From a virus (taxonomy: Duplodnaviria > Heunggongvirae > Uroviricota > Caudoviricetes), in the IMG/VR virus record IMGVR_UViG_2778261152_000002, positions 1 through 17,392 of that record: a stretch of 17,392 bases of DNA; one strand, 5' to 3'. The position numbers and the translations under genes are program-made. Below, piece after piece: positions 223 through 17,392 of this stretch (position 1 is the first letter of the stretch; every line of letters starts with the position of its first letter). The notes below the pieces were generated by a model that saw nothing but the letters and a program-made list of their open reading frames with translations, did no database searches and had not been told where the DNA came from.

Positions 223-257
223 AACCCCACCTCGCAGATGCGGGTGCTGTGTAATGG

Positions 258-282: not shown

Positions 283-288
283 ACCAGA

Positions 289-1840: not shown

Positions 1841-1955
1841 TTAAGTTGTGTGGCGAAGTAACCACTCTTAACACGATACAATAGTTTTTGCGTACGCGTT
1901 AGTGGTTATGTAAACTTTCTCCATATAAAAACAGCAAAGAAGCGGATATTTTGAA

Positions 1956-2984
1956 ATGGCTACACTGGACGCATTCAGTAGAGTAATAACTCATCATACT
2001 ATTACGATCGATACACAATACCGTACACAGAAAATTGATGATAGCATCAGATCGAACTGTGTTTGCCCGGTACCAACAATGCGTGAACTTGCTTCTAAAA
2101 TAGTACGTTGTAAAGCAATGATGCACAGTTATGAAAAAGGAGACTTAGTTTTAACTTTGCAAGATGTAATCTTCTTATCAAACAGAGCCGATAAAAAACC
2201 CAGCCATCTTGGTCTTTTAATTAATGCTGTAGATAAAAATGGAAGCACTACTGTGTTAAAAAACATTAATACAGATGTTCGTACCGAAATATCACCAAAA
2301 CATGAGGAAGGTGAAGGTTACGAAGTTTCTTCTCATATGATTATTTCTCTAGACGGAAATATGCGAACCTATGACATGAGTTTTATGCCAATACCAGGAG
2401 TTTCCACAGCAAAAATAAATGGTTTCCTGAATAAAGTTCTCTTTAACGTAGCCAAAGATAATGAAGATATCTTTTCATGTAACACTTTAACAAATGAAGT
2501 ATCAAGTTTAACAAAGAAAAAAATAAAAGTATTATACAAGCCAGTCTTTGATATATCTGGAAAGTTAGATGAAGATTTGTTCAATAAAATAAATAAAGAA
2601 GGACTTTCTGATGTCGTTTTGGTAAAGAATGAATACAGAACTATTAATGCGCCAGATGTTAACGCGGCTATTATTCCTAAAGAAAGTACTTTACGCTTAG
2701 TACCAAACCATGGCCCCAACAATGTCCTTGGATGGATAAAATCTGTCTCAAACTTCTTTAAAGAAGATAAAAATGGAGGTTATGACTTAATAAAAATAAA
2801 ATTCAAAGAGCCAGAGACAGGATTCACAAGACAAGTTGACCTTCAAACTTCAAATGTAAGGCTCGATGGGCTGGAAAAAACATTTATCAAAAAGAGTGTA
2901 ATAAATGGTTTTTCTTCGCGCTTAAAGGATTCTTATGATAGTATTAACATGGAGTTTGTGAATAAGATTATCGAGGTCATGTGA
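1956..2984 (+). CDS. Hypothetical soluble protein, first gene of AT-rich two-gene cassette
   Basis: 342-aa ORF, ATG 1956, TGA 2982-2984. K/N/D/I-rich, no TM segments, no nucleotide-binding or catalytic motif I can recognise. Markedly lower G+C than flanking phage genes. Opposite strand to the surrounding late operon. Confidence 0.7.
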   Translation: MATLDAFSRVITHHTITIDTQYRTQKIDDSIRSNCVCPVPTMRELASKIVRCKAMMHSYEKGDLVLTLQDVIFLSNRADKKPSHLGLLINAVDKNGSTTVLKNINTDVRTEISPKHEEGEGYEVSSHMIISLDGNMRTYDMSFMPIPGVSTAKINGFLNKVLFNVAKDNEDIFSCNTLTNEVSSLTKKKIKVLYKPVFDISGKLDEDLFNKINKEGLSDVVLVKNEYRTINAPDVNAAIIPKESTLRLVPNHGPNNVLGWIKSVSNFFKEDKNGGYDLIKIKFKEPETGFTRQVDLQTSNVRLDGLEKTFIKKSVINGFSSRLKDSYDSINMEFVNKIIEVM

Positions 2985-2991
2985 GGCTAAT

Positions 2992-3567
2992 ATGATTAGT
3001 ATATTTTCACATTTATTTAGACCGTTTGGTTACCTTTTCATTAAGGGAATTAGTGGTAAGTGCGCATACGATTTTTATGCACCTGCCGGGCTTGCTGTGA
3101 TTTCTTTTTTTTACTTTTATTTATTTAAAATACCCACATCAGACCTACTAAAAGATGGCGGCTTTATTAAGTCTATATCTGGATTTGTATCAAATCTGCC
3201 AGGTTTTTATATAGCAGCTCTTGCAGCAATAGCCACTTTCAACAGAGAACAAATTGACTACCCTCTGATAGGAACTAATGGCACGCCTTTTATTAAAATT
3301 ACACGAACAAAAGAAAATGGTAGAATTGTTGACACTCAAGAGAAACTTACCAGAAGATTATTTCTGTGCATGTTATTTTCATTTTTAACTGCCCTCAGCA
3401 TATGCATAGTGATTTTCAACGCTTTTATCACACCACTAATAAACATACTGAATAATGATATAGCAAACTGGTGCTATATCATTATCTTTTTATTCCTTAC
3501 ATGGCAAATGCTTGTTTCAACATTTTTTGGACTATACTATCTTGGTGATAGGATTCACATTAATTAA
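2992..3567 (+). CDS. Hypothetical integral membrane protein (about 4 TM helices), second gene of cassette
   Basis: 191 aa. ATG 2992 is 7 nt after the upstream stop, with SD GAGG overlapping that stop (translational coupling). Four hydrophobic stretches (about residues 22-45, 62-85, 125-150, 160-185) separated by a charged loop. Confidence 0.7.
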   Translation: MISIFSHLFRPFGYLFIKGISGKCAYDFYAPAGLAVISFFYFYLFKIPTSDLLKDGGFIKSISGFVSNLPGFYIAALAAIATFNREQIDYPLIGTNGTPFIKITRTKENGRIVDTQEKLTRRLFLCMLFSFLTALSICIVIFNAFITPLINILNNDIANWCYIIIFLFLTWQMLVSTFFGLYYLGDRIHIN

Positions 3568-3922
3568 CTACCATAATGGGGTTTATAGTTATTATTACAC
3601 CGCTGATAAACCCCATGGCAGTCTGCAATTCCTTCCTAATTGTGCCATCTGAACATCTTCTCTTCTTGGCAATAGTGCGTAATGAGATACCAATAACAAA
3701 GTGAGCTATGATCAGCTCATATTCCTCTGGTTTATACTTTCGCAACCGAGCCACACAACCGTCTATCATGATGCCTTCATCATCATCACACTGGAGACGT
3801 GACTTTTTACCGTGTGGTAAAAGTCCCTTGAAACCAGCCGCTATCGGCTGCCAGTCCACACCACTATTTTCTGCTGCAGCCCATGCTCCCCAGCGGTCCA
3901 ATACTTCATACATATCACGCAT
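3560..3922 (-). CDS. Late-gene antitermination protein Q (small Q family, QuuD-like)
   Basis: Protein MRDMYEVLDRWGAWAAA...IAAGFKGL...SRLQCDDDEG...CSDG matches the about 125-aa Q-like antiterminator pattern as recalled. The track start at 3937 is TTG; ATG at 3920-3922 with SD GGAGA is preferred. Confidence 0.7.
   Translation of the reverse strand: MRDMYEVLDRWGAWAAAENSGVDWQPIAAGFKGLLPHGKKSRLQCDDDEGIMIDGCVARLRKYKPEEYELIIAHFVIGISLRTIAKKRRCSDGTIRKELQTAMGFISGVIITINPIMVVN
3576..3616. repeat. Perfect 11-bp inverted repeat ATGGGGTTTAT / ATAAACCCCAT with 19-bp spacer
   Basis: Read directly: 3576-3586 and 3606-3616 are exact reverse complements. Sits at the 3' junction of the cassette, inside the C-terminal codons of Q. 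Confidence 0.6.
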
Positions 3923-3939
3923 CAACTTTCTCCACAAAA

Positions 3940-4935
3940 TCAGGCCAGCACGCCAATTGCCAGCGCACGATCGATAAAACGAAATATCAGCTCCAGCTGG
4001 GAGCCATACTTCTCTTCAAATGCCACGGTATCCGCATGCAGCTCGTCGTGATGCTTTCTGCACAAAGGCAACACAAAAAGGTCATGCGCTTTTGTTCCCA
4101 TTCCACCCTGACCGTGACCTATCAGGTGGTGGGGATCATCAGCGGGCTTTCCACAACATGCACACGGCTGTGTCTTAACCCAGCGCGTGTACTTTTCATT
4201 AACCCAGCGGCGACGTTTTGGGCGTAACATAAAAGACTCCGGCGACTCCGGATCCACTTTCAGCGCCAGCACCTTTTTCGCTTTATCCTGGATGATACTG
4301 GTGGCAGGAACCGAAGGCACAAGGTCACTTTCCCGGGTGACAGACGGCACAACAGGCTTCGGTAATCTCAGTGCCTTACGGGCTGCACTTTCCGGTAAGG
4401 CATCCGCCAGGTCATTACGAACCAGCCACCAGCACAGTTCCGGCATTGTCACAACGTGACTGTCATCAAAACCGAGATCCCGACGCACGACAGACAACAC
4501 CCAGCGGGCACAGTTATCCGTTGCCATTGATTCCAGCCGTTCCGTGAATTGATCGCGCAGCTGGTTATCGCAGTGCCAGCACAGACGGATTGCGCCCGGA
4601 GCATGTCGCATTGTGGTCATGTTCTCGCTGTGCCAGTCGGAATGAGGCCACTGACAGCCTTTTTCACGAAGTAACCAGCTTTCAAGACATTCCACGCCAC
4701 CAGCACGACGGATCACTGCCTCATTACGGAACACGGCCCGAACGGCAGGATCATCCGCCAGTGGTTGTGATGCCGCCGGAACGGCACCACTGGCAAAAGA
4801 TGAATAACGTTCCGGCTCAGGCTCCAGCAGGACACGCCCCTGCATAAACAGGGGCATCAGCTCTGAACCAGGCCTGAACAATACGATCCCCATACGCGGG
4901 GCAATTTCAGGGGTCAGTAGTGCTCTCACGATCAC
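3940..4935 (-). CDS. DUF968-like phage protein with C-terminal HNH/zinc-finger-like motif
   Basis: 331-aa ORF (GTG start at 4935, 1 nt after the upstream stop). C-terminus CACCGKPADDPHHLIGHGQGG...LPLCRKHHDELH has paired Cys and His-His typical of HNH-like folds. DUF968 assignment is from memory of Qin prophage YdfU-like proteins. Confidence 0.65.
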   Translation of the reverse strand: MIVRALLTPEIAPRMGIVLFRPGSELMPLFMQGRVLLEPEPERYSSFASGAVPAASQPLADDPAVRAVFRNEAVIRRAGGVECLESWLLREKGCQWPHSDWHSENMTTMRHAPGAIRLCWHCDNQLRDQFTERLESMATDNCARWVLSVVRRDLGFDDSHVVTMPELCWWLVRNDLADALPESAARKALRLPKPVVPSVTRESDLVPSVPATSIIQDKAKKVLALKVDPESPESFMLRPKRRRWVNEKYTRWVKTQPCACCGKPADDPHHLIGHGQGGMGTKAHDLFVLPLCRKHHDELHADTVAFEEKYGSQLELIFRFIDRALAIGVLA

Positions 4936-4936
4936 C

Positions 4937-5746
4937 TCAATGAACGGTATCGAGCAGCTTTAACAGCTCAGGGAATCGGGATTCGAAGAAATGCGGCTGC
5001 GTCTCGCGCGGATTTGCAGGACTGGTGATGTTCTTGCCGAACATGCAGCCTTTCGCCGTCAGCGACCAGAATTTTTTGATGTTGTTAATCGCGGTACGGC
5101 TGTATCGTTCGCGTTGTTCAACGATCCCCAGCTTCACCATCTGGTGATATGCCTGATTAGCCGTCAGGCGGATACCATACTGTTTCAGCAGTGCACTCAG
5201 TGACAGCGTGGGACGGCTTGAGCCATCAGTCGCGTCAGCAGGAGCATCAATGGCATAGCGCGGTGCCAGATTCGGTAAGCCAACAGCCTCCTGGAGTTTC
5301 TGACAGGCACCAAGCACTGAAGAGTTAGACAGGTTTAATTCCCGGCGCATAAAGTCCAGCAGAATCACGCCAGCCTGCATCTTGTCAGCAGCCTGTCCGG
5401 ATAACTTTTCCGGCGCGCTGGTTACCATATCGAAAGTACGGATCACCTTCAGATGGAATGACGGGCTGATCCACATTGCATAGGCATACACCAGTTCCTT
5501 ACAGACATACGTTCCCCGTTCATTTCCCCCATGAATCACACTCACCGGGTCAACACCCAAATTCTGGGTGTTGATTAATTCATGAACAAGATCAACAGTT
5601 TGTTGGCTGGAAAGAAACTTTCCTGGCTCCTTGGTTCTGGCATTTGCACCAGATGCTACTGCTGCGCGATGCAGATCGTTCAGGCTGTAACGCTCATAAG
5701 CATCACGACGAACTTCAATACCATCAATGACCATCAGATTATTCAT
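4937..5746 (-). CDS. KilA-N domain protein (antirepressor-like)
   Basis: 269 aa. N-terminus MVIDGIEVRRDAYERYSLNDLHRAA fits the KilA-N pattern. ATG 5744-5746 with SD AGGAGA 8 nt upstream. Confidence 0.7.
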   Translation of the reverse strand: MNNLMVIDGIEVRRDAYERYSLNDLHRAAVASGANARTKEPGKFLSSQQTVDLVHELINTQNLGVDPVSVIHGGNERGTYVCKELVYAYAMWISPSFHLKVIRTFDMVTSAPEKLSGQAADKMQAGVILLDFMRRELNLSNSSVLGACQKLQEAVGLPNLAPRYAIDAPADATDGSSRPTLSLSALLKQYGIRLTANQAYHQMVKLGIVEQRERYSRTAINNIKKFWSLTAKGCMFGKNITSPANPRETQPHFFESRFPELLKLLDTVH

Positions 5747-5765
5747 ACTTCGTTTCTCCTCTTAA

Positions 5766-6155
5766 TCAGGCAGCTGCACCCGCCGTTTTCTCGTACTTAC
5801 TGATAGTGATCTCGACCTTCCCTTCCGGGATAACCGGTCCCCACTCCACCAGCATTCTTTTCACCTGACTGTCGTCTTCCCACACCCCCGCGTGGGTCAG
5901 GGCGTCAAACAGCGCCTTGTTATAGTTGTCCAGATCGCGGATCCTGTTATCCGGAGGAAACAACACGATCTCCACTGAAGCAGGTGCCGACGTTGGTTTC
6001 GGCAGACGACGTAACTGCTCAACTATTGCTGCGCACGCCGCGCTCTGGAATTTTCGCCCCGCCGCGCTTATCAGGCTCTTACCAGCAAACGCCCCTTTGT
6101 TGGGGTGTCGCCAGTACGTGTTCACGCTGGGCGGAAAAGGCAGGATCAGCTTCAT
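5766..6155 (-). CDS. rusA: Holliday junction resolvase RusA
   Basis: 129 aa with PPSVNTYWRH and RDLDNYNKALFDALTHAGVWEDDSQV, matching the RusA catalytic region. ATGA overlap with the upstream gene. Confidence 0.85.
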   Translation of the reverse strand: MKLILPFPPSVNTYWRHPNKGAFAGKSLISAAGRKFQSAACAAIVEQLRRLPKPTSAPASVEIVLFPPDNRIRDLDNYNKALFDALTHAGVWEDDSQVKRMLVEWGPVIPEGKVEITISKYEKTAGAAA

Positions 6156-6478
6156 ACTTTCAGGCCCCTCTCATGTAACCAGTGGGTTGCACGCAGCCTT
6201 GCGTTTTCCTCACCGGCAAGCAGTGAGCGGATAATCCCGACCGCCTCGCTGTCGTCGTCCTTCACCGCGGTATGAAGCGTGATGCCCCGGGCCACGCCAC
6301 GCTTTATCGTGATGACGCCTTTTTTCTCCAGTGCGCGAAGATGCTCCACCGCTGCATTCACTGAACGGTATCCCAGCATGGTTGCCACCTCCTGATTGGT
6401 TGGCGGGAAGCCACGTTCTTTCTGATAAGAAATCAGCATATCCAGCACCTGCTGCTGGCATTGAGTTAACGTCGTCAT
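6152..6478 (-). CDS. LexA-type winged-helix DNA-binding protein (no peptidase domain)
   Basis: 108 aa. N-terminus LTQCQQQVLDMLISYQKERGFPPTNQEVATMLGYRSVNAAVEHLRALEKKGVI closely parallels the LexA N-terminal DNA-binding domain. SD AGGGAGA, ATG 6476-6478. Confidence 0.6.
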   Translation of the reverse strand: MTTLTQCQQQVLDMLISYQKERGFPPTNQEVATMLGYRSVNAAVEHLRALEKKGVITIKRGVARGITLHTAVKDDDSEAVGIIRSLLAGEENARLRATHWLHERGLKV

Positions 6479-7161
6479 GCCGCCATCTCCCTGACCAGTT
6501 TTTCTGCCTGCTGGCGAACCTGCGCCAGAAAGGCCTCACCACATGCCTCAAGTTCATAGCGCCCGATGTAGCTGATTGCCGGTCCCTTCCAGGTCTTGTC
6601 GAAAACAGCAATAGCACCAGCGAAGAAAGCGCCTGTCGGCACCTGCTTCTCATCCTTCGGGATAAACCAGGCAGGCAGTTCAAAACCAATACGCCCGCGA
6701 ATAAAAGCAATATGATCTGCATCTTCCGGCCACCACACTTCGCTGGTGGCAGCTTTGATCAGGAAAACATAGCGCCCGCCTTTATCACGCATGGCACTGG
6801 CATGCTTCATGATGTAACGCATGCCGGTGATGTATTGCCCCTCATGCTGACTGGCGCGGCTGTATGGGGGATTACCAAAGGCAGCACCTTTAAGCTCCGC
6901 AAGGCATTCTGACCAGTCATGCGCCAGCGCGTTGTCTTCCGCCGTGTAATACGCAGCACATTTGGCGTTATCACCGTCAGTAAACAGATCCAGAACAAAC
7001 GGGCCAAACAGAGTGTTAATTCCCCAGAAAATGTTGTCCGGCGTGCGCCACTGATCGCCCACTTCCTTCAGTTCATGGGCTGGTTTGTTCCGCAGTTCCG
7101 CCAGCGCCTGGCAATATTTATTACTCATTAAGCCCCCACGTAATTCCCTGAGAGATACCAC
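6475..7161 (-). CDS. Phage Dam-like N6-adenine DNA methyltransferase
   Basis: FGNPPYS (NPPY) motif. The track start at 7161 is GTG; ATG at 7126-7128 overlaps the upstream TAA by 1 nt (TAATG) and is the likelier start, giving 217 aa. Confidence 0.75.
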   Translation of the reverse strand: MVSLRELRGGLMSNKYCQALAELRNKPAHELKEVGDQWRTPDNIFWGINTLFGPFVLDLFTDGDNAKCAAYYTAEDNALAHDWSECLAELKGAAFGNPPYSRASQHEGQYITGMRYIMKHASAMRDKGGRYVFLIKAATSEVWWPEDADHIAFIRGRIGFELPAWFIPKDEKQVPTGAFFAGAIAVFDKTWKGPAISYIGRYELEACGEAFLAQVRQQAEKLVREMAA

Positions 7162-7616
7162 TCTTCACCTGATGCAGCCCGCTTACTGCTTTTCCGTAAA
7201 CACCGTTCACGACGCGCCAGAAAATTGTTTCGTTCTGGCTGGGAGTGGCTTTCACGGAATGCCGCCATCCACACCGTTGCAGCACGACGGTATAAGCCCC
7301 TGGACTCCAGTTCTTCCGCCTGGCGGGTCAGGCACAAAATCACCCGCGGGTCGTTAGTGCCGACATAGAAATTGCGCACAGGTCTGGTTTCACGAACTGG
7401 TTGTGGTTCCGGATCCTGCGCTCTCTCAGTCAGGCGCGGGAAATGTCTGTGTGTATCTCCTTCACAACGGTGAGCCACACGCCCACTCTGACGTAACTTG
7501 CTTGCTGACTGCAGAACGCGCTGCCGTGAGTAACCTGCAAAAGCATCCGCAATGTCTCCGGAAGTACAGCCCGGATGGGCTTCAATGAATTTCTGAACGT
7601 CATTCAAAAGACTCAT
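7128..7616 (-). CDS. Hypothetical regulator with PerC-like C-terminal motif
   Basis: ORF to 7622 starts with GTG; ATG at 7614-7616 with SD GGGGTG is preferred. C-terminal LESRGLYRRAATVWMAAF...RRERC resembles the PerC-family signature as recalled. Confidence 0.5.
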   Translation of the reverse strand: MSLLNDVQKFIEAHPGCTSGDIADAFAGYSRQRVLQSASKLRQSGRVAHRCEGDTHRHFPRLTERAQDPEPQPVRETRPVRNFYVGTNDPRVILCLTRQAEELESRGLYRRAATVWMAAFRESHSQPERNNFLARRERCLRKSSKRAASGEEWYLSGNYVGA

Positions 7617-7618
7617 GA

Positions 7619-8560
7619 TCACCCCCTGAATCCTGCCGGGATCTGGCTGTAGTCCACGTTGTCGTAACTGGCTTTGAAGTACGGGTCTTCACGTTTTTCT
7701 GTGTGCGTGCTGACGGACGGCGATAAGCGCAGGGAAAGCTCATCCCATTTTTCCCGCAACTTCGACGGGCTGAGCACGTTACGGCACCAGAACGGATCGC
7801 GGCTGACGCGGCTGTACATCTCGCAGATTTGTTTGTGAGTACGACCATCCTGCACACACATCAGGCGAATTTCGTTTGCCCATGCTGTCCAGTTCGGTTC
7901 TTTGGGACGAACCACCTCGCCGTCACATTCGGCGGCCTGCTCGTACAGGGCAATGATTTTTTTCCAGAGCCACTGTGCGCAGGTCAAATCATCCTGCGTT
8001 CCCCACTGGCGCTTTTTAGGGCTGAATACAACCGCATCAGGATGGCGAGTTAAAAAATCCTGTTCAGCCGTCTGCGTGTCCGGTTGCGAAGCGTCCGGAC
8101 GAGAAGGTTTTTTATCTGACGGATCATGTTTTGATTTTACTGACGGATCCCCGCCAGATTCTGACGGGTGAAAACCCGCTTTTTTGCCAGATTTCGACGC
8201 ATCAAATTTTGACGGGTCAGATTTTGATGCGTCAGATTTTGACGGGTCAGAATCTGACAGTTGAGAAAATGCCGCTGCCTGAAGCTTCGCAACGTTAAGC
8301 TGATAAACATTCGACGCATTGCGGTTACCCTGGCGACGCGCCTTACGCGTTAACCAGCCTTCTGCTTCCAGCCGTGCGATAGCCGTCCTGACGGTACTCA
8401 TCCCCGCGCCAATCTGACGGGCAATAGTTTCAATTGATGGCCAGCACACACCTTCGTCATTACTGAAATCAGCCAGGCGGGCCATAATTGCCACGCTGGA
8501 TAATTTCATGCCTGATGCAGCGCAACCATCCCATACATAGCCGGTTAATTTAGTGCTCAT
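7619..8560 (-). CDS. Replication initiator (O-like): N-terminal HTH, iteron-encoded linker, DnaT-like C-terminal domain
   Basis: 313 aa. N-terminal winged-helix-like segment, central pentapeptide repeats (DPSKS DASKS DPSKF DASKS) encoded by the 15-bp DNA repeats, C-terminus ending ...YSQIPAGFRG like the C-terminus of primosomal protein DnaT (recalled). ATG 8558-8560 with SD GAGG. Confidence 0.8.
   Translation of the reverse strand: MSTKLTGYVWDGCAASGMKLSSVAIMARLADFSNDEGVCWPSIETIARQIGAGMSTVRTAIARLEAEGWLTRKARRQGNRNASNVYQLNVAKLQAAAFSQLSDSDPSKSDASKSDPSKFDASKSGKKAGFHPSESGGDPSVKSKHDPSDKKPSRPDASQPDTQTAEQDFLTRHPDAVVFSPKKRQWGTQDDLTCAQWLWKKIIALYEQAAECDGEVVRPKEPNWTAWANEIRLMCVQDGRTHKQICEMYSRVSRDPFWCRNVLSPSKLREKWDELSLRLSPSVSTHTEKREDPYFKASYDNVDYSQIPAGFRG
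8114..8260. repeat. Iteron array (candidate replication origin) inside the initiator gene
   Basis: At least five tandem 15-bp units (CCAGATTTCGACGCA, TCAAATTTTGACGGG, TCAGATTTTGATGCG, TCAGATTTTGACGGG, TCAGAATCTGACAG) at 8187-8260, plus degenerate copies at 8114-8170. Analogous to lambda ori inside gene O. Confidence 0.6.
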
Positions 8561-8569
8561 GACCGACCT

Positions 8570-8908
8570 CTATTTCCCTGAATTTACGACGAAACTGTTC
8601 GAGCGGGCTGAAGCACTCATGCTCATAGCCTTCGCGGAGGTAGATAACTCGTTGTGTTTCCGGCTCCCAACGAATGACTCTGACGGGCACTCCGTAGTGA
8701 TCTTTGAACCAGCGGTTAACTTGTCGCAAAGGACTGTCTCCTTCTGCCGGTTGAAATCACCCACAGCCCACTCAGCAAAGCTGTGGGTTACAATTTCCCT
8801 GTCACCTGGTACATTAACTGCATAGCAATACTCCACCTTCGCTTTTCCACCCGGTACAGGAAGCGCAATCAGTTGCGAGCGACGGTAGTGTGTTGTTAAA
8901 CTGTTCAT
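8570..8908 (-). CDS. Hypothetical phage protein between cII-like gene and initiator; possible frameshift
   Basis: ATG 8906-8908 overlaps the upstream stop. The N-terminal 53 aa look protein-like; the rest of this frame is Ser-rich and low complexity, while an alternative frame open from about 8746 to a TAA at 8550-8552 encodes a more protein-like tail. Confidence 0.45.
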
Positions 8909-9513
8909 GCGTTAGTTTCTCCACAGTCACGACACGCCACGGCGCCCGGAGCTGCACACTCGCGGGCGTCATTACTTTCTGAAATGCAAAAGATTTTGTA
9001 GACCAGTGCTGCATGCTCCTGCAGCTTCGAAATTGAGAGATACAGCTCGTCGTTAATTGCTGTCTTCTCATGCGGTTCCACCACACCGTCTTCGATTGCC
9101 GAACGAATCTGTCTGGAATAACTGCCAATTTGTTCAATGACTTCCAGCAGGCGCTGGTTAATATCGGCGTTGTCCACATCCTCGACGTCAGGAAGAGACA
9201 CAAAGACGCCATTTGCAGACTGCGCCACAGCGTCAGCAATGAAGTGAGTTCCACCAGCACGTTGCAAAATCATTGCCCATCCCAGCGGGAAAATCTGATC
9301 GCCATCGGCACGAAGGCGGTTAAATAATGCGTTTTCTGTTACATCCAGCCAGTCAGCTGCTTCAGCGTAACCACCCGGCAACGCTGCGATAGTTTTTCTG
9401 ACAGCTTTCACGTACCACTCAGGCTGTTTTTCTACTTTCCAGTGATGCTTACCCACGGTTAGCCTCATCGTTCTGTGGTTTCTGTTAATCGATTTATCCA
9501 TTAGATTTTTCAT
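8905..9513 (-). CDS. cII-position regulatory protein (CII/CP76- or YdaT-like), start uncertain
   Basis: ORF is open from a GTG at 9570; candidate ATG starts at 9513, 9501 and 9468, none with a strong SD. C-terminus has a C-x7-C-x7-C-x2-C cluster. Function inferred mainly from position downstream of cro. Confidence 0.5.
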
Positions 9514-9694
9514 AAAGCTCAGGTTTAAATGGCAACCGTCCGCAAGTTCTATATGCAGCTTCTGCTGCACGTCCTTTTGGAATTAACTGGCCCGGACGGT
9601 TTCGCCACTGATAAACGGCTTCAGTTGTTATGCCGAAAAAAGCAGCAACTTTCTCAATACTGCCGAAGTAGCTTTCGATATCGTCAGTTGTCAT
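9494..9694 (-). CDS. cro: Cro-like HTH repressor
   Basis: 66 aa, divergent from cI. HTH-like segment AAFFGITTEAVYQWRN. ATG 9692-9694 with SD GGAGG. Confidence 0.7.
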   Translation of the reverse strand: MTTDDIESYFGSIEKVAAFFGITTEAVYQWRNRPGQLIPKGRAAEAAYRTCGRLPFKPELYEKSNG

Positions 9695-9791
9695 ACGCCC
9701 TCCAAGCTAAGTTTTATTAGATGCTAATTACAAATCTATCTTTGGTCAATAAAAACTAAGATTACTTAGCAATTAAAGAAATGGTGCTCCT
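9695..9791. promoter_or_regulatory. Divergent cro/cI operator-promoter region
   Basis: 97-bp AT-rich interval between divergent cro and cI. Near-palindrome CTAAG-ATTA-CTTAG at 9756-9769 and CTAAG at 9707-9711 with partial inverted partners. Confidence 0.5.
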
Positions 9792-10418
9792 ATGGAAACG
9801 GTTGGTCAGCGTATAAAAGCTCTGAGAAGAGTTACCGGAACGTCCCAGAAAGAATTGGGTAAATTTTGTGGAGTAAGCGACGTTGCTGTGGGGTACTGGG
9901 AGAAAGACATCAATACCCCTGGTGGGGAAGCACTTTCGAAATTAGCGAAGTTCTTCAATACGTCAATAGATTACATTCTTTATGGTGCTGAGTTTGAAGG
10001 CAAACTCGTCACAAACATGCGCAGAGTTCCTGTAATATCGTGGGTTCAGGCTGGGCAGTTTACTGAGTGCAGGGCAGCAGAAGTGTTTAGTGAAGTGGAC
10101 AAGTGGGTAGATACATCATTAAAGATTGGTGATAACTCATTTGCATTAGAGGTTAAAGGTGACTCCATGACTAACCCTAATGGCCTCCCAACAATACCAG
10201 AAGGCGCAACAGTGATTGTAGATCCAGATGCAGAACCTCGTCATGGAAAAATAGTCATCGCTCGACTTGATGGAACAAACGAAGCTACAGTAAAAAAATT
10301 AGTCATCGATGGCCCTCAAAAGTTTTTAGTGCCATTAAATCCTCGGTATCCCAACATCCCTATCAATGGTAATTGCCTTATCATTGGTGTAGTCAAAGGA
10401 GTTCAATACGAACTCTAA
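9792..10418 (+). CDS. cI: CI-type prophage repressor (XRE HTH plus S24 LexA-like peptidase)
   Basis: 208 aa. N-terminal HTH (QKELGKFCGVSDVAVGYWEKD), Ala-Gly cleavage site in VQAGQF, catalytic Ser in GDSM and Lys in ATVKKL. Confidence 0.9.
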   Translation: METVGQRIKALRRVTGTSQKELGKFCGVSDVAVGYWEKDINTPGGEALSKLAKFFNTSIDYILYGAEFEGKLVTNMRRVPVISWVQAGQFTECRAAEVFSEVDKWVDTSLKIGDNSFALEVKGDSMTNPNGLPTIPEGATVIVDPDAEPRHGKIVIARLDGTNEATVKKLVIDGPQKFLVPLNPRYPNIPINGNCLIIGVVKGVQYEL

Positions 10419-10580
10419 GACCTCTCTTCTCTAACTAAGGCACCGAACTAAGAAAAGTTTGGTGTTTTCTCTTGCCACAATAACTAAGTTAAGTTAGATT
10501 TTATATCAAAGATAACGAACAGGCAGGACGCCCACGAAGTAGCCGCCTGGGGCATATGAAGTCCAGGATGATTCGTTAGC

Positions 10581-10606
10581 AACAAAAAAGCGCCCTACAG
10601 GACGCT
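10581..10606 (-). terminator. Candidate intrinsic terminator (minus-strand transcripts)
   Basis: Minus-strand RNA: AGCGUCC-UGUA-GGGCGCU (7-bp stem including one G.U) followed by UUUUUUGUU. The plus-strand version has a C-A mismatch and a poor U tract. Confidence 0.4.
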
Positions 10607-10665
10607 TAGCTCTTTAACAATCTGGTCCCCATCAACAAGTAACTGATAACTTGAGGAGATGTGAA

Positions 10666-10872
10666 ATGCACAAAACAGAACCCAAAATCGTCGCGCCTGG
10701 CTACACAGATGAGGAAATTTATGAGTGGATGACAAAGAAGCTGGCAGCTATAAACCAGCTTCGTGAAGTGCTGTCTTATCGACAGGAAACAATAGACTCC
10801 TTAAAAAAACTGGATCAGGAAATCACGGTTTTATCACAGGATGTTACTTTAGATATTGTGCAGACAAATTAG
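10666..10872 (+). CDS. Hypothetical small coiled-coil protein (immunity-region insert)
   Basis: The track ORF starts at a TTG at 10651; ATG at 10666 with strong SD GAGGAG is preferred, giving 68 aa. Heptad-like charged/hydrophobic pattern. Its 3' end overlaps the convergent 144-aa gene by 29 nt. Confidence 0.45.
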   Translation: MHKTEPKIVAPGYTDEEIYEWMTKKLAAINQLREVLSYRQETIDSLKKLDQEITVLSQDVTLDIVQTN

Positions 10873-11278
10873 GATCCCATTCATTTTCGTCAAAATCATC
10901 AAAGTGATGAATTTGTGATCTCCAGTCTCGATAATCTAAAAATTTCTGGGCGGTTACGCTTATTTTATCAAGTGTGAGTTCATCCTGAATTGAAAGAAGA
11001 AGTTCATCAAATTTCATCTCATTAATCTGTTTTGGCATCCAGTGATGCTTCATCAGAATAAGGTGAACCAGAGCCTTTTTCCCATTCAACTGATTATAGG
11101 GAGTGCCGAATTTCTTCCGGTGCTCATGTAAGACAAGGTCCAAAAGAGTAAGTAATGTTGCCCTTGATTCAACTTTGCTTATTTCGACTGATGACACTAC
11201 CCCACTGATTTCAATGCCCCGATACTTTCCAACATTTTCACAGTGGGATTTGTACAGCGTATAGATATTACCGGACAT
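10844..11278 (-). CDS. Hypothetical 144-aa protein in the immunity region (rex/sieB position)
   Basis: ATG 11276-11278 with SD AAAGGAAAAG. AT-rich gene. No TM segments. Contains R-x6-H (RDWRSQIH), too degenerate to call a HEPN domain. Confidence 0.55.
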   Translation of the reverse strand: MSGNIYTLYKSHCENVGKYRGIEISGVVSSVEISKVESRATLLTLLDLVLHEHRKKFGTPYNQLNGKKALVHLILMKHHWMPKQINEMKFDELLLSIQDELTLDKISVTAQKFLDYRDWRSQIHHFDDFDENEWDPNLSAQYLK

Positions 11279-11430
11279 TTCTTTTCCTTTTGCGTTGTTG
11301 GGGATAACCAGATTAACCGAATCCTTGTTGTTGGGGAATAACTAGGTCCACCTCGCCTGATGTGGCTAAAAGCAGGCACATAACAGCTAAGTATTTTCAA
11401 CCAGAGAGAATCCTTAGCGTTGTGGTGAAT
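11279..11430. promoter_or_regulatory. Candidate OL/PL-type control region
   Basis: Position between the immunity insert and the early-left genes. Direct repeats GTTGTTGGGGATAAC (11294-11308) and GTTGTTGGGGAATAAC (11327-11342). CTAAG (11387-11391) and CTTAG (11413-11417) form an inverted pair. No confident -35/-10 identified. Confidence 0.3.
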
Positions 11431-11564
11431 GCGGCTCAGCGCACGCGGGTTAAGGTTGAGGCTGACAGTCGACCTTCTGTGGATACCCACCCGCCTGGTG
11501 TGCAACCTTCGCCAGGCACCGGGAGGCACCCGGCACCACAACTTTATGCTGTGTGTAGTCTTGG

Positions 11565-11609
11565 CGGTACCAGCTTGTACCCTTGCTTCCGGCTGGTACC
11601 GTCCTTTTT
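11565..11609 (+). terminator. Candidate intrinsic terminator in the early-left leader
   Basis: Plus-strand hairpin CGGTACCAGC (11565-11574) / GCTGGTACCG (11592-11601), 10-bp stem with 17-nt loop, then TCC and TTTTT (11605-11609). Confidence 0.35.
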
Positions 11610-11746
11610 ACAAAACAGAGAAGAGCATCACCGGACGACGGGCTCATAACCCAATCCATCCGGGCGGCAGTCACCGCAGGTGTTCTTCTCTGTTTTGTGG
11701 AGAAACTAACCGACCTTGCAGGGTCGATATGATGAGGAGCAGCAAA

Positions 11747-12109
11747 ATGGCTAGCGAACGCAGTACTGATGTGCAGGCATTTATCGGGGAGCTGGACGGC
11801 GGCGTATTTGAAACCAAAATCGGCGCAGTTCTCAGTGAAGTCGCTTCCGGTGTGATGAACACGAAAACCAAAGGTAAGGTCTCGCTCAACCTGGAAATCG
11901 AACCGTTTGATGAGAACCGAGTGAAAATCAAACACAAACTCTCATATGTTCGCCCGACTAACCGCGGGAAAATTTCCGAAGAAGACACCACCGAAACGCC
12001 GATGTATGTCAATCGCGGTGGTCGCCTGACTATTCTGCAGGAAGACCAGGGACAGTTACTGACTCTTGCCGGTGAACCTGACGGAAAACTCCGCGCAGCA
12101 GGTCGTTAA
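11747..12109 (+). CDS. Hypothetical early protein, YfdP-like (120 aa)
   Basis: The track ORF from 11429 has a Pro/Arg-rich, improbable N-terminus; ATG at 11747 with SD GAGGAG gives a 120-aa product. YfdP-like call rests on size and on neighbourhood with the YfdQ/R/S/T-like genes. Confidence 0.6.
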   Translation: MASERSTDVQAFIGELDGGVFETKIGAVLSEVASGVMNTKTKGKVSLNLEIEPFDENRVKIKHKLSYVRPTNRGKISEEDTTETPMYVNRGGRLTILQEDQGQLLTLAGEPDGKLRAAGR

Positions 12110-12174
12110 TATCGTTTTTAATTAACTGATTATTTATCTCATCACTGAATATCTTTATATAGTGAGGACTTATT

Positions 12175-12999
12175 ATGTCTCAGAACTTAGACGCAACCGC
12201 AATTAATCAAATCCATGCCCTTATTTCTGCTCAGGGTGTTAATGAAATTATCAGTAAGATTGGTGCCGATGCTGTGGCATTGCCTGAGAATTTCCGCATT
12301 CATGATCTGGAAAAATTTAATTTAAATCGCTTCCGTTTCCGTGGTGCGCTTTCCACTGCCAGCATCGATGACTTTACCCGTTATTCTAAAGATCTTGCAG
12401 ATGAAGGCACCCGCTGCTTTATCGATGCTGATAATATGCGTGCCGTCAGTGTGCTTAACCTGGGTACTATTGATGAACCAGGTCACGCAGATAACACCGC
12501 CACACTCAAACTGAAAAAGACAGCACCGTTCTCTGCTCTGTTGTCTGTTAACGGCGAGCGTAACTCCCAGAAGTCACTAGCAGAATGGATTGAAGACTGG
12601 GCCGACTATCTTGTGGGCTTTGATGCTAATGGTGACGCTATTCAGGCAACAAAAGCGGCTGCGGCTGTCCGTAAAATCACGATTGAAGCAAACCAGACCG
12701 CTGATTTTGAAGATAATGACTTCAGCGGCAAACGCTCCCTGATGGAGTCTGTCGAAGCGAAGACCAAAGACATTATGCCAGTGGCATTTGAATTTAAATG
12801 CGTTCCGTTTGAAGGTCTGAAAGAACGTCCGTTTAAATTACGCCTCAGTATTATCACTGGCGATCGTCCTGTACTGGTTCTGCGCATTATTCAGCTGGAG
12901 GCGGTGCAGGAAGAAATGGCTAACGAATTTCGTGATCTGCTTGTTGAGAAATTCAAGGACAGCAAAGTAGAAACCTTTATTGGTACTTTCACCGCCTGA
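12175..12999 (+). CDS. yfdQ: YfdQ-like protein (DUF2303 family as recalled)
   Basis: 274-aa ORF with SD GTGAGGA. Length and position match E. coli YfdQ; family assignment is from memory. Confidence 0.7.
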
Positions 13000-13126
13000 T
13001 TTCATTACTGCAAATGCCCCTGCGGGGGCATTTATGGAAACGTAATTTACTCAATAATCGCCGGATGGTGAGGGATTCTTTTTGCCAGAATTCAGCGCGG
13101 TGCAGCGCATATACGTGGAGAACAAA

Positions 13127-13663
13127 ATGTCATTTATTAAAACTTTTTCCGGGAAGCATTTTTATTATGACAGGATAAATAAAGACGACATCGATATTAA
13201 CGATATCGCGGTTTCCCTTTCAAATATCTGTCGCTTTGCCGGTCATCTTTCGCACTTCTACAGCGTCGCCCAACATGCGGTTCTTTGCAGCCAGCTGGTG
13301 CCGCAGGAATTTGCTTTTGAAGCGTTAATGCATGATGCAACAGAAGCGTATTGCCAGGACATTCCCGCACCACTGAAACGCCTTCTTCCTGACTATAAAC
13401 AAATGGAAGAAAAAATAGACGCCGTAATCCGTGAGAAATACGGGTTACCCCCAGTTATGAGTACGCCCGTGAAATATGCCGATCTCATCATGCTGGCAAC
13501 CGAACGCCGCGATCTCGGGCTTGATGATGGCTCTTTCTGGCCTGTACTGGAAGGTATCCCGGCAACAGAGATGTTCAACGTGATTCCACTGGCACCGGGC
13601 CATGCCTACGGGATGTTTATGGAACGCTTTAACGAGTTATCGGAGTTACGCAAATGCGCATGA
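13127..13663 (+). CDS. yfdR: HD-domain phosphohydrolase, YfdR-like
   Basis: The track start at 13082 is TTG; ATG at 13127 with SD GGAGA gives 178 aa. Metal-binding signature H...HD present (VAQHAV ... ALMHDATEAY). Confidence 0.8.
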   Translation: MSFIKTFSGKHFYYDRINKDDIDINDIAVSLSNICRFAGHLSHFYSVAQHAVLCSQLVPQEFAFEALMHDATEAYCQDIPAPLKRLLPDYKQMEEKIDAVIREKYGLPPVMSTPVKYADLIMLATERRDLGLDDGSFWPVLEGIPATEMFNVIPLAPGHAYGMFMERFNELSELRKCA

Positions 13664-14016
13664 ATGTTTTCGAAATGGAAGGGTTTCTTCGTGGGAGATG
13701 TGTACCGCGAGATCTGAAAGTAAATGAAACAGATGCTGAATACCTGGTGCGTAAATTCGATGCGCTTGAAGCTAAATGTGCAGCACAGGAAAACAAAGTA
13801 ATACCAGTGTCAACTGAACTGCCACCAGCAAATGAAAGTGTTTTGTTATTCGATGCTAACGGAGAAGGCTGGCTAATTGGCTGGCGTTCTCTCTGGTACA
13901 CCTGGGGACAAAAAGAAACCGGAGAATGGCAGTGGACATTTCAGGTCGGGGACCTTGAAAACGTCAATATCACTCACTGGGCAGTAATGCCAAAAGCACC
14001 GGAGGCTGGAGCATAA
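13654..14016 (+). CDS. DUF551-like protein (YfdS-like)
   Basis: 120 aa. Trp-rich C-terminal half ending ITHWAVMPKAPE, reminiscent of DUF551. Overlaps upstream stop; stop overlaps next start (TAATG). Confidence 0.6.
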   Translation: MRMNVFEMEGFLRGRCVPRDLKVNETDAEYLVRKFDALEAKCAAQENKVIPVSTELPPANESVLLFDANGEGWLIGWRSLWYTWGQKETGEWQWTFQVGDLENVNITHWAVMPKAPEAGA

Positions 14017-14321
14017 TGACCACTTTTACCGACAAAGAACTGATTAAAGAAATTAAAGAGCGTATCAGCAGCCTTGACGTGCGAGACGATATTGAGCGCC
14101 GTGCTTATGAAATCGCACTCCTATCTCTGGAAGTAGAACCAGATGAACGCGAAGCTTATGAATTATTCATGGAAAAGCGTTTCGGTGACTTAGTAGATCG
14201 TCGGAGAGCAAAAAACGGCGATAACGAATACATGGCATGGGATATGACTCTCGGTTGGATCGTCTGGCAGCAACGAGCTGGTATCCATTTTTCAACAATG
14301 TCACAGCAAGAGGTGAAATAA
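14016..14321 (+). CDS. Hypothetical early protein (YfdT-like, 101 aa)
   Basis: 101-aa ORF, SD GGAGG, TAATG overlaps with both neighbours. No motif recognised. Confidence 0.55.
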   Translation: MTTFTDKELIKEIKERISSLDVRDDIERRAYEIALLSLEVEPDEREAYELFMEKRFGDLVDRRRAKNGDNEYMAWDMTLGWIVWQQRAGIHFSTMSQQEVK

Positions 14322-14671
14322 TGGAGCCATACAGCCTCACACTCGATGAGGCCTGTCATTTTCTCAAGATATCCAGACCGACTGCCATTAACTGGATACG
14401 CACAGGGCGTCTTCAGGCAACACGCAAAGATCCCACTAAGAATAAATCTCCTTACCTCACAACACGACAAGCCTGCATTGCGGCTCTTCAGTCTCCGCTG
14501 CATACTGTCCAGGTGAGCGCGGGTGATGGCATAACAGAGGAAAGAAAATGTCACTCTTCCGCAGAGGTGAAATATGGTACGCCAGTTTCACATTGCCGAA
14601 CGGTAAAAGATTTAAACAGTCTCTTGGAACAAAGGACAAAAGGCAGGCGACAGAACTCCATGACAAGCTAA
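14321..14671 (+). CDS. xis: Excisionase (Xis), P22-like
   Basis: ATG 14321 with SD AGAGGTG gives 116 aa. N-terminal HTH-like segment [26 protein letters not shown]. Sits immediately upstream of int. The 3' end overlaps int by about 120 nt in another frame, so the true stop is uncertain. Confidence 0.55.
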
Positions 14672-15711
14672 AGGCTGAAGCATGGCGGGTCAGCAAACTT
14701 GGTGAAATACCTGATATAACGTTCGAGGAAGCGTGTGTCAGGTGGCTTGAAGAGAAAGCACATAAAAAATCACTGGACGATGACAAAAGCCGGATCGGAT
14801 TCTGGCTTCAACATTTCGCAGGAATGCAACTAAGAGACATTACTGAATCAAAAATTTATTCAGCAATGCAGAAAATGACGAACCGGCGTCATGAGGAAAA
14901 CTGGAAACTCAGGGCAGAAGCATGCAGAAAAAAAGGGAAACCTGTTCCAGAATACACGCCAAAACCAGCGTCCGTTGCAACGAAGGCTACGCATCTTTCA
15001 TTTATAAAGGCCCTACTAAGAGCCGCAGAGCGTGAATGGAAAATGCTGGATAAGGCACCAATTATTAAAGTGCCTCAACCAAAGAATAAACGGATCCGCT
15101 GGCTGGAGCCCCATGAAGCACAAAGGCTGATTGATGAATGTCCGGAGCCATTAAAGTCTGTTGTTGAATTTGCACTGGCAACAGGCTTAAGACGCTCGAA
15201 CATCATCAACCTTGAATGGCAACAAATAGATATGCAGCGCCGGGTGGCATGGATAAACCCGGAAGAGAGTAAATCAAACCGCGCAATCGGCGTTGCGCTG
15301 AATGATACTGCATGTCGCGTTTTGAAAAAACAAATCGGGAATCATCACCGTTGGGTATTTGTGTACAAGGAAAGCTGTACCAAACCAGACGGAACGAAAG
15401 CGCCAACAGTAAGGAAGATGCGGTATGACGCAAACACAGCCTGGAAAGCGGCGCTGAGACGGGCTGGTATTGATGATTTCAGATTTCACGACTTGAGACA
15501 CACCTGGGCAAGTTGGCTGGTTCAAGCCGGAGTCCCGTTGTCAGTGTTACAGGAAATGGGAGGCTGGGAGTCTATCGAAATGGTTCGTCGATATGCTCAC
15601 CTTGCACCTAATCACCTTACCGAACACGCACGGCAAATAGACTCGATCCTGAACCCATCGGTCCCAAATTTGTCCCAGTCAAAAAATAAGGAAGGTACTA
15701 ATGATGTGTAA
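14548..15711 (+). CDS. int: Tyrosine integrase (P22/Sf-type, 387 aa)
   Basis: N-terminus [34 protein letters not shown] typical of P22-family integrases. Catalytic-region residues in [11 protein letters not shown] and Tyr in RRYAHL. SD AGAGGA. Transcribed toward the att core. Confidence 0.9.
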
Positions 15712-15725
15712 CTTATTGATTTAAA

Positions 15726-15772
15726 TGGTGCCGATAATAGGAGTCGAACCTACGACCTTCGCATTACGAATC
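15726..15772 (-). other. attP core: 47-nt 3' fragment of tRNA-Thr (anticodon loop to CCA end)
   Basis: Reverse complement reads GATTCGTAATGCGAAGGTCGTAGGTTCGACTCCTATTATCGGCACCA: anticodon loop with CGU, T-arm GGTTCGACTCC, 3' CCA. Similarity to the tRNA breaks 5' of the anticodon stem, so this is not a complete tRNA. Matches thrW as recalled. Confidence 0.75.
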
Positions 15773-16061
15773 TGTAGCACCAATCATAACTATCTGTTTT
15801 AGCAAGCATTAACCGCATTCACTAAGCTATAGTTGATGGCACAAACAGAAAGTTGATGCATGATGTTGTCATGTATATGTCACAAATACGGCACAACGAT
15901 CTTCAAACATGTAGCCACACATCCACAGAAGAGCACAAAGCCTTGCAATCAAGTGCAAAGCTTTGTGTACCAGAGTTTTTCCTCATCAACTAACACAAGT
16001 ATCGATCGATTGAGACTTGGATGATAGACTTCATGCCTTTCAGAACTCATTGATTACATAA

Positions 16062-16424
16062 ATGTTAAAGCTATTTGCAAAGTACACCTCGATTGGTGTG
16101 CTGAACACACTTATACACTGGGTGGTTTTTGGTGTATGTATCTATGCCGCGCATACCAATCAGGCTCTGGCAAACTTCGCAGGTTTTGTTGTGGCTGTGA
16201 GTTTTAGCTTCTTCGCGAATGCAAAATTCACATTCAAAGCATCAACTACAACGATGCGCTACATGTTATATGTCGGGTTCATGGGAACACTGAGTGCAAC
16301 TGTTGGATGGGCTGCTGATAGATGTTCACTTCCTCCAATTGTCACTCTTGTCACCTTCTCCGCCATCAGCCTGGTGTGCGGTTTCGTCTATTCAAAGTTC
16401 ATTGTCTTTAGGAATTCAAAATGA
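16062..16424 (+). CDS. gtrA: GtrA, bactoprenol-linked glucose translocase (flippase)
   Basis: 120-aa 4-TM protein starting [20 protein letters not shown], characteristic of GtrA. ATGA overlap with gtrB. Confidence 0.9.
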
Positions 16425-17344
16425 AAATTTCGCTTGTTGTTCCGGTCTTCAATGAGGAGGCCGCAATACCAATCTTCTACAAAACGGTGCGAGAATTCGA
16501 CAAGTTAAAGCAGTATGAAGTTGAAATAGTTTTCATCAATGATGGCAGTAAAGACGCAACAGAATCAATTATCAACGCGCTTGCGATGTCAGATCCTCTT
16601 GTAGTTTCACTGTCATTCACAAGGAATTTTGGTAAAGAGCCAGCTTTGTTTGCTGGACTTGAACATGCAACTGGCAATGCAGTAATACCTATAGATGTTG
16701 ATCTTCAGGACCCAATCGAGGTTATCCCGCACCTGATAGAGAAATGGCAGTCAGGATCTGACATGGTTCTTGCTAAGCGATCAGAACGTTCTACTGATAG
16801 TCTATTAAAGCGGAAAACAGCGGAGTGGTTCTACAAACTACATAACAAAATCAGCAATCCAAAGATTGAGGAAAATGTTGGTGATTTTCGGCTGATGAGC
16901 CGCGATGTTGTCGAAAACATAAAGAGAATGCCAGAACGAAACCTGTTCATGAAAGGCGTGTTGAGTTGGGTTGGTGGCAAGACAGACGTCGTTGAATATG
17001 TCCGTGCTGAACGTGTTGCGGGAGATTCAAAGTTCAATGGCTGGAAATTATGGAACCTAGCACTTGAAGGTATTACCAGCTTTTCAACTTTTCCTCTCAA
17101 AATATGGACATATATAGGTTTGTTCGTCGCCGGTACAGCGTTCACGTATGGCTCGTGGATGATTATTGATACGTTAGCATTTGGTAACCCCGTTAGAGGT
17201 TATCCGTCAATTCTGGTATCGATTCTTTTCCTTGGAGGCATCCAACTTATTGGAATCGGTATTCTTGGTGAATATGTTGGCCGTATATATATAGAAACAA
17301 AAAAACGACAAAATAATTTTTTACTGAATAAAAATGAAATTTAA
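16421..17344 (+). CDS. gtrB: GtrB, bactoprenol glucosyltransferase (GT2 family)
   Basis: 307 aa. N-terminal GT2 fold signature ([11 protein letters not shown] ... INDGSKD ... DVDLQDP), C-terminal two TM helices. Confidence 0.9.
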
Positions 17345-17367
17345 AAAAACAAAAAACCCCGAATACC

Positions 17368-17392
17368 ATGAGGAAAATGGTTTATCATTTAT
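17368..17392 (+). CDS. Possible 5' end of the serotype-specific glucosyltransferase gene, truncated by window edge
   Basis: ATG at 17368 (or 17377) about 25 nt after the gtrB stop. In gtr operons the type-specific transferase follows gtrB. Only about 8 codons visible. Confidence 0.25.

Follow-up and report, generated by a model that had tools for sequence, protein, structure and literature searches.

We analysed a 17,392-nucleotide (nt) stretch of viral DNA (IMG/VR record IMGVR_UViG_2778261152_000002, positions 1 to 17,392; hereafter the window), the whole of which represents an SfV/SfIV/e14-like lambdoid prophage of Escherichia coli with cI, cro, cII, Q and int genes. The leader of its early-left operon very probably contains a divergent STnc100-family RNA whose core is pseudoknotted and which ends in a terminator of its own. 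We lean towards a reading in which the terminator of this leader-embedded RNA gates the operon, with antitermination supplied from upstream by a second structured RNA (element A), by a boxA, or by both. The STnc100 family was known before; as far as we checked, what is new is the subfamily, its place in leaders and its association with boxA. STnc100 is a multi-copy prophage RNA: 11 copies are transcribed in EDL933, one of them confirmed by Northern analysis (PMC5331693), and one copy lies 75 nt downstream of stx2B, overlapping the Hfq-binding EcOnc27 (PMC12370729, PMC12711010). PasD of enteropathogenic E. coli (EPEC) is related to STnc100 and is abundant in Hfq RIL-seq (a ligation-and-sequencing method for RNA interactions) data (bioRxiv 10.64898/2026.05.13.724894). 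STnc100/PasD RNAs are among the most abundant prophage transcripts in enterohaemorrhagic E. coli (EHEC) and EPEC.

A preliminary description of the window, made from its letters alone, had singled out a GC-rich, hairpin-dense interval starting at 11440 and had proposed folding, an Rfam scan and an alignment for compensatory changes as checks. Folding of 11389-11612 gave a minimum free energy of -87.9, against a mean of -75.0 for dinucleotide shuffles (z = -2.84; 3 of 200 shuffles were equal or better). In the E-value mode of Rfam, the same segment (+ strand) scored 43.4 bits (E = 8e-8) against STnc100 (RF02076), the alignment covering model positions 1-206 of 206; in gathering mode the whole window gave no matches. 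Both checks spoke for a structured RNA, with a fold better than the shuffles and a sub-threshold family match. The interval is structured as described, but the domain begins earlier, at 11419, or at 11389 if its 5' hairpin is included. The three hairpins of the preliminary description were all recovered and correspond to the variable hairpin (P4), the invariant hairpin (P5) and the terminator of STnc100: GCCUGGU/GCCAGGC (11493-11499 paired with 11511-11517), CCGGG-AGGCA-CCCGG (11519-11533), and a stem followed by a T-run, which measured 12 bp rather than 10 bp (11563-11574 paired with 11592-11603). The consensus helices and the conserved core sequence (UGGUGAAU...CACCGGGAGGCACCCGGCACCA) of the family, a 3' Rho-independent terminator (11563-11609) and a prophage location were all found.

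The invariant 22-mer CACCGGGAGGCACCCGGCACCA is common to the window core and to canonical STnc100-type units. An exact scan of IMG/VR with this 22-mer returned more than 120 contigs with 73 unique cores, and a second scan with the window-type 5' motif returned 16 unique cores in about eight lineages. Our covariance model R1, trained on 12 window-type cores, scored the window core at 127.6 bits and canonical units at 30-60 bits, and it found 78 units in 54 loci. With the filters of R1 off, no second copy of the core (putR-like or near Q) was found in the window, all other matches being at most 10 bits; thus, the core has no putR counterpart. With STnc100, PasD1, PasD2 and EcOnc27, which prophages of Salmonella, EHEC and EPEC encode, the window RNA shares the closing helix UGGUG/CACCA, P4, the invariant P5 (CACCGGGAGGCACCCGGCACCA), a pseudoknot joining the segment after P2/P3 to the P4 loop, a 3' intrinsic terminator and location in lambdoid prophages. 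It differs from them in its P2/P3 region (GAAUGCGGCUNAGCGCACGCGGG in place of GAAUCCCCCUGUGCGGAGGGGC), in having no promoter of its own at a fixed 7-nt distance, in its location, which is an early-left leader and not a tandem array or a site downstream of stx/Q, and in the boxA-like motif that stands beside P1 in half of its subfamily. DicF (RF00039), with a cut-off of 48 bits, was rejected as an identity; 11550-11604 reached 19.4 bits (E = 0.22), and the likeness was confined to the terminator stem.

The STnc100-type core, matched by RF02076 and R1, spans 11419-11542 on the + strand. P1 (9 bp, 11419-11427 with 11534-11542) closes it and encloses P2 (11430-11433 with 11440-11443), P3 (11447-11449 with 11490-11492), P4 (11493-11499 with 11511-11517) and P5 (11519-11523 with 11529-11533); in the pseudoknot, AAGGUUG (11452-11458) pairs with CAACCUU (11503-11509) in the P4 loop. 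Across 75 distinct family sequences, 89.2% of the alignment cells were paired, compared with 74.2% in shuffled and at most 47.8% in slid controls, figures that lean towards structure in that the alignment was fitted to the model, the slid control being a partial remedy. In the same alignment 20 of 28 pairs of the family core changed on both sides, and the covariation score was 0.401 versus 0.136. P1, P3 and P4 covary, and P5 is invariant across the family. The proposed alignment thus uncovered the compensatory changes that it was meant to look for.

Because the two strands of the pseudoknot were out of register in the MAFFT alignment A1, we examined this helix by a per-sequence search with a permutation control. 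Among 28 lineage representatives, the mean pairing with the own loop was 6.89 versus 5.07 across lineages, and none of 20,000 permutations reached the observed value; the registers were picked per sequence, which also leans towards structure and for which the permuted control is a partial remedy. Different lineages carry different complementary pairs at the same site, namely AAGGCUGG/UCAGCCUU, AUCAGC/GCUGAU, CCAGUC/GACUGG, GUGAUACCA/UGGUAUCAC, AGACUGACAAA/UUUGUCAGUCU and UGGUUAAU/GUUAACCA. This helix is not part of the Rfam STnc100 consensus structure as displayed for the window match.

The interval is non-coding. Its reading frames are Pro/Arg/Gly-rich and of low complexity, as had been described, and they gave no family match in Pfam or PHROGs. 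Compared with ST64B (74% identity over the leader), the substitutions were spread evenly over the codon positions of the long open reading frame (ORF; 21/21/23), the indels were of 1, 1, 1, 20, 1, 2 and 1 nt, and all leader frames were broken by stops in ST64B, phiES15 and cdtI. We rejected the ORFs 11429-11746 and 11362-11649 and the 68-aa ORF after the early-left promoter as N-like genes, as they had no family match, no Arg-rich motif and no coding pattern of substitution; the 68-aa ORF is acidic and neutral, not Arg-rich. No N-family protein was found in the window with Pfam and PHROGs, and the proposed search for an Arg-rich N-like ORF likewise found none there, so the statement that the leader has no convincing N gene holds. 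The ATG ORF 11429-12109 is in frame with yfdP, and a protein reading, namely a small N-like protein rich in Arg and Pro, or a YfdP extended at its N-terminus, would agree with two public annotations over the RNA (11422-11746): SfIV gp34, a 226-aa extended YfdP, and the RefSeq 'frameshifted hypothetical protein' CNQ52_RS27890 of the Prokaryotic Genome Annotation Pipeline (PGAP). The frame-breaking indels, the stops, the even substitutions, the lack of a family match and a conservation pattern that follows the paired helices make such a reading extremely unlikely. From the same substitution and indel pattern it follows that gp34 and the PGAP pseudogene are probably annotation artefacts, and we flag both as mis-annotated 'proteins'. 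With the covarying helices, these results indicated a structured RNA and not a protein gene.

The units that we collected were of two kinds. Among canonical units, 18 of 57 representatives had a TAnnnT hexamer with its end exactly 7 nt ahead of UGGUG and, usually, a TTGAC placed another 17 nt upstream; with a -10 element ending 7 nt before P1, the canonical RNA starts at P1. Canonical units often stand in tandem arrays of 3-5 copies with a period of about 250 nt, and these traits are those of stand-alone small-RNA genes. Arrays were seen, for example, in the viral contigs L016 (2322-3353), L063 (4378-5463), L024 (371-992), L032 (1724-2345) and L040 (837-1435). The window-type units have no promoter at a fixed distance and always lie in early-operon leaders; in P1-like phages, such a unit precedes the ban (dnaB-like helicase) gene. 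Among species-representative genomes, the window-type motif occurred in Escherichia, Shigella and Enterobacter and also in two gut bins of metagenome-assembled genomes, which are probably mis-binned.

The gene layout places this RNA in the early-left operon. A cII-like gene (8905-9570, -) and a P22-Cro-like gene (9494-9694, -) are followed by a cI-like gene (9792-10418, +; helix-turn-helix and Pfam S24 domains), and the + strand rightward of cI is therefore the early-left operon, in agreement with the preliminary description. Its first credible gene is yfdP (11747-12109, +; phrog_204, E = 1e-49), for which the described ATG at 11747 is also the RefSeq start and is preceded by GAGGAG at 11734-11739; yfdQ (DUF2303; 12175-12999, +) and the integrase gene (14548-15711, +) follow. 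The leader is indeed GC-rich (0.573 for 11401-11700 versus 0.35-0.42 just upstream), but it does not adjoin the control region as had been thought. The probable early-left promoter pL (TTGCCA-17 nt-TAGATT, 10472-10500, +, from a promoter scan) lies about 900 nt further left, just past the stop of the cI-like gene, and is overlapped by an operator-like repeat, CTAAGTTAAGTTAG (10484-10497). The motif of this repeat, CTAAG-N4-YTTAG, is also found at 10448 and, in two copies (9707 and 9756), between the cI-like and cro-like genes. Between pL and the interval are a 68-aa ORF (10666-10872, +) and, in the opposite orientation, a 144-aa accessory (moron-type) gene of the 'ECs1072 family' (10844-11278, -).

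A second structured RNA, element A (10515-10576, +), lies directly after pL. It is a 62-nt three-way junction consisting, in order, of a P1 helix (ACGAA/UUCGU), a GGC-loop-GCC hairpin, the invariant CACGAAGUAGCC, stem II (CCUGG/CCAGG) and an invariant AUGA. Element A is 81-100% identical in SfV, SfII, ST64B, mEp237, Pectobacterium ZF40, Pantoea AH07, Yersinia YeP1, SPN3UB and Klebsiella phages, and many lambdoid phages without N, from Escherichia, Salmonella, Klebsiella, Yersinia, Pectobacterium and Pantoea, keep it. We scanned for it with the invariant 15-mer GCCCACGAAGTAGCC, the invariance of which is not independent evidence because the 15-mer was the search key, and obtained 85 unique versions. 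Nearly all of them stand 15-25 nt after a strong sigma-70 promoter (TTGACA-17-TAnnnT) with many different operator sequences; in ZF40, AH07 and mEp237, element A follows by a few nt a TTGAC(A/T)-17-T(A/T)(C/T)A(C/T)T promoter that itself lies after the repressor gene. In 25 diverse sequences all 10 pairs of its P1 and stem II changed on both sides, 98.5% of the cells were paired, and the covariation score was 0.633 versus 0.152 for shuffled and at most 0.137 for slid controls; RNAalifold predicted the same structure unaided. The GGC-loop-GCC hairpin, CACGAAGUAGCC and AUGA were invariant. Element A gave no match to Rfam 15 at E-values up to 10, and as far as checked, in Rfam 15 and in the searchable literature rather than in every published list of put-like RNAs, it is an uncatalogued RNA. 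No copy of it was seen behind pR.

In 27 of the 32 loci collected via the core, element A lay on the same strand 440-1070 nt upstream of it; of the 74 loci collected via element A, about 15 had the core. Most element-A loci thus do without the core, which makes element A a general leader element and the core an optional addition. The order repressor gene, pL, element A, core and first early gene is the same in ST64B, phiES15, AH07 and mEp237. In the ST64B leader (L005), a GC-rich stretch of about 250 nt lies between element A and the core and ends in a terminator-like hairpin with T-run (2905-2950); with this stretch (2660-2950, +), ST64B has two terminators before its first early gene.

Downstream of element A, the window has a hairpin (10588-10607, +) and then an exact rrn-type boxA 12-mer, GCUCUUUAACAA (10609-10620, +); 0.17 matches at up to one mismatch are expected per window. 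In minus-strand orientation this hairpin is a scan-detected terminator and ends the accessory gene 10844-11278, which runs the opposite way. This boxA, the sole one of the window and about 800 nt upstream of the core, belongs to an inserted module made up of the 68-aa ORF and the accessory gene, and occurs only in relatives that carry the module. A perfect rrn-type boxA after a hairpin in the pL leader, in rrn order, is a feature shared with the lambda nut and rrn boxA leaders.

An intrinsic terminator (11563-11609, +) with a 12-bp stem, a 17-nt loop and a tail of C and U5 (11604-11609) lies between pL and yfdP...int. A role as attenuator, which had been suggested for the leader, or as first terminator is therefore possible; standing in the path of pL transcription, the element would be at least the first barrier of the early-left operon. 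A terminator-like hairpin with T-run was found 32-82 nt past the core in 64 of 86 unique downstream sequences of the family. The single-stranded linker between core and terminator (11543-11562, +), UGCUGUGUGUAGUCUU (UGCUGUGUG(U/A)AGUCUU), is kept in three lineages, SfV-like, ST64B and phiES15, and, should the RNA work in trans, would be a candidate for the seed of base pairing.

In the gating reading that we favour, transcripts from pL (start near 10507) would pass element A and boxA and then the core. A polymerase not made termination-resistant would stop at 11609, which would keep yfdP...xis-int off and release a stable, structured, U-tailed RNA. By the precedent of the Hfq-bound and Northern-detected RNAs of EHEC and EPEC, the released RNA may act in trans through the kept linker. 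Read-through into the operon would most likely come from element A and/or the rrn-type boxA, and less from the core. Lambda 6S RNA (pR'-tR') and StxS of Stx phages are comparable: a promoter-proximal or leader transcript stops at a terminator that is bypassed in lytic growth only, and the terminated product persists as a small RNA. They differ in belonging to a late promoter under Q control, the window RNA being in the early-left leader instead. To our knowledge, no antiterminator protein is known for this leader RNA.

Several points weigh against this assignment. The 43.4 bits of the window copy are below the curated STnc100 gathering cut-off of 47 bits, and the related copies of ST64B, phiES15 and RCS47 are likewise under it (35-41 bits). 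The hexamer GAGAAT (11406-11411), 7 nt before P1, could serve as a weak -10-like element, a guess without a good -35. Expression and Hfq association are known from other copies of the family, not from this one, and the antitermination role proposed for element A and boxA is drawn from their position and conservation only. A pseudoknotted core with invariant junction nucleotides would be odd for a plain base-pairing small RNA and hints at a protein, polymerase or ligand partner. Finally, 7 of the 14 window-type lineages, though their flanks are unrelated, have a UGCUCU(C/U) motif that ends 7-8 nt ahead of P1's UGGUG. A boxA-like motif at this place agrees more with a cis-acting, Nus-linked role than with a trans-acting one. 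The motif was located in L143, L225, L226, L003 (RCS47, 2488-2500), L234, L066, L086 and L309, and in cdtI (L004, about 2365-2372), whose variant core keeps P1 only; in the P1-like RCS47 it reads UGCUCUUU.

These last points suit the main alternative, in which the core itself is a cis-acting site of processive antitermination and a nut/put analogue; a boxA-like element and a large folded RNA would stand in for boxB and N. The pL elongation complex would then be made to read through its own and later terminators by the nascent RNA, either through direct contact or together with Nus factors. No N was found, yet a terminator stands between pL and the early genes (two in ST64B); the window-type subfamily is promoterless and confined to early-operon leaders; UGCUCU(C/U) keeps a fixed distance from P1 between otherwise unrelated flanks; and the fold is complex and conserved, with invariant single-stranded nucleotides. 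The window itself fits less well. No boxA (CGCUCUUA-like) was found beside its core, where AAUCCUUAG stands and the boxA position is degenerate (AAUCCUU, 11410-11416), and the core is present once, with no copy behind pR or pR'. Stand-alone units of promoter, core and terminator, often in tandem, make up most of the family, an arrangement that makes little sense for a cis site. Moreover, it is element A that stands where putL classically does, and most of its loci have no core. On balance we consider this alternative rather unlikely.

A lambda-type nut site was rejected, the window core having no GNRA-like pentaloop, no N protein and no boxA beside it; in relatives, the boxA-like UGCUCU(C/U) directly before the core is a point of likeness to nut and rrn boxA leaders. 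The hairpin that had been called boxB-like turned out to be P5, which is invariant in the STnc100 family; with AGGCA as its loop it has no GNRA-like loop and so is not a boxB. An HK022-type put was also rejected. Put RNAs antiterminate processively without proteins and bind the zinc-binding domain of the RNA polymerase beta' subunit. R1 scored at most 8 bits on the putL/putR loci of HK022 and on the HK639 loci, and comparison by eye found no similarity, a one-way comparison (R1 on put loci, and visual) as Rfam holds no put model; the GenBank record of HK639 annotates a putL-like RNA. The put RNAs of HK022 and HK639 resemble each other (GACGAACGGCGCG...AAACCAUGCGUCGG...UCAGGAUGAACGGCAAU) and not the core. 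Both systems have a phage without N, a nascent structured RNA in the pL leader and terminators downstream, but put is about 74 nt long, has two stem-loops and lies behind both pL and pR in HK022, whereas the core is about 124 nt long, with five helices and a pseudoknot. Put lies next to the early promoter with a copy per early operon; the core, at about 910 nt from pL and in a single copy, does not, and the position directly after pL is that of element A. Element A is a three-way junction and has only CGAAC.GGC and GGAUGA in common with put. Its location and conservation make it the best candidate for a put-like function. Thus, of the suggestion that the interval is a nut/put-like element, a structured RNA capable of attenuation stands and a nut/put identity of the core does not. 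The general idea that an N-less phage needs an RNA or host-factor antitermination signal is plausible, with its best candidates outside the interval, at 10515-10576 and 10609-10620.

We also considered a riboswitch-like attenuator, in which the core is an aptamer for a metabolite or for a host or phage protein, and the ligand decides whether the terminator forms. The closing P1, the multi-helix junction with invariant nucleotides, the pseudoknot and a terminator 20-60 nt downstream are all reminiscent of such elements. However, P1 and P5 are constant, yet no sequence relationship joins the terminators found in the window, ST64B and phiES15 lineages; no conserved alternative pairing between core and terminator was noted, no formal search for alternative helices having been made; Rfam gave no riboswitch match; and stand-alone tandem units without a following gene are not expected of a riboswitch. 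This makes it very unlikely.

Beyond the gating reading of the window, it is possible, and we suggest it tentatively, that N-less phages of the SfV/ST64B/mEp237/ZF40 type run their early-left operon on an undescribed RNA and host-factor antitermination, the signal being element A, a put analogue unrelated in sequence, which might act together with boxA and the pseudoknotted core. If this were true, the STnc100/PasD fold would be an RNA that binds the elongation complex or Nus factors, and not an ordinary base-pairing small RNA. Our analysis adds to the family a shared, covarying pseudoknotted fold and a promoterless leader subfamily, often with a boxA-like flank, and it adds a second, promoter-proximal RNA. 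These RNAs are concrete, mutable targets for studying how N-less lambdoid phages pass their early terminators.

The remaining features flank the core. The 5' hairpin of the STnc100 match, found in the Rfam alignment and the fold, occupies 11389-11415 (+). Between the terminator and the yfdP ribosome-binding site lies a long hairpin with a 21-bp lower stem (11610-11698, +), followed by a small hairpin (11711-11726, +), the Shine-Dalgarno sequence and the start codon. Folding of 11613-11760 gave z = -3.64, and none of 200 dinucleotide shuffles was as good. The long hairpin is kept in cdtI and ST64B with two compensatory pairs, and its G.U pairs suit the + strand only; it is a possible RNase III/processing site or stability element. 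A mosaic joint was seen near 11561, beyond which the terminator, the long hairpin and yfdP are 92-97% identical in cdtI, mEp460 and Stx2c phages that carry a different core. In that core (cdtI, L004, 2374-2493; mEp460; Stx2c phages) only the P1 helix is kept (GUUGUGGU/ACCACAAC), and the cdtI-type core has a similar loop-to-upstream pairing, GUAUGG/CCAUAC.

Many E. coli chromosomes contain the DNA of the hairpin-rich interval at 100% identity, and phages Kati, SfIV, SfV and SfII match it at 96-99.8%. A tRNA/tmRNA scan of the window found none. Above-threshold Rfam matches to C4 antisense RNA and isrK were seen in the replication/regulator region of the related phages ST64B (L005, 409-597, -) and cdtI (L004, 27-103, -); the window has no counterpart at the Rfam gathering threshold. 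The Q antiterminator gene (3560-3937, -) adjoins a probable accessory or defence cassette, an inserted AT-rich block (1956-3567, +; GC 0.29-0.36) with two + strand ORFs of 342 and 191 aa, oriented opposite to the late region. A 38-nt block, CCACCTCGCCTGATGTGGCTAAAAGCAGGCACAYAACA, is kept in the window (11348-11385, +) and in phiES15 (L006, 2899-2934); in both it lies between a minus-strand accessory gene and the RNA, and it could be a promoter for either strand.

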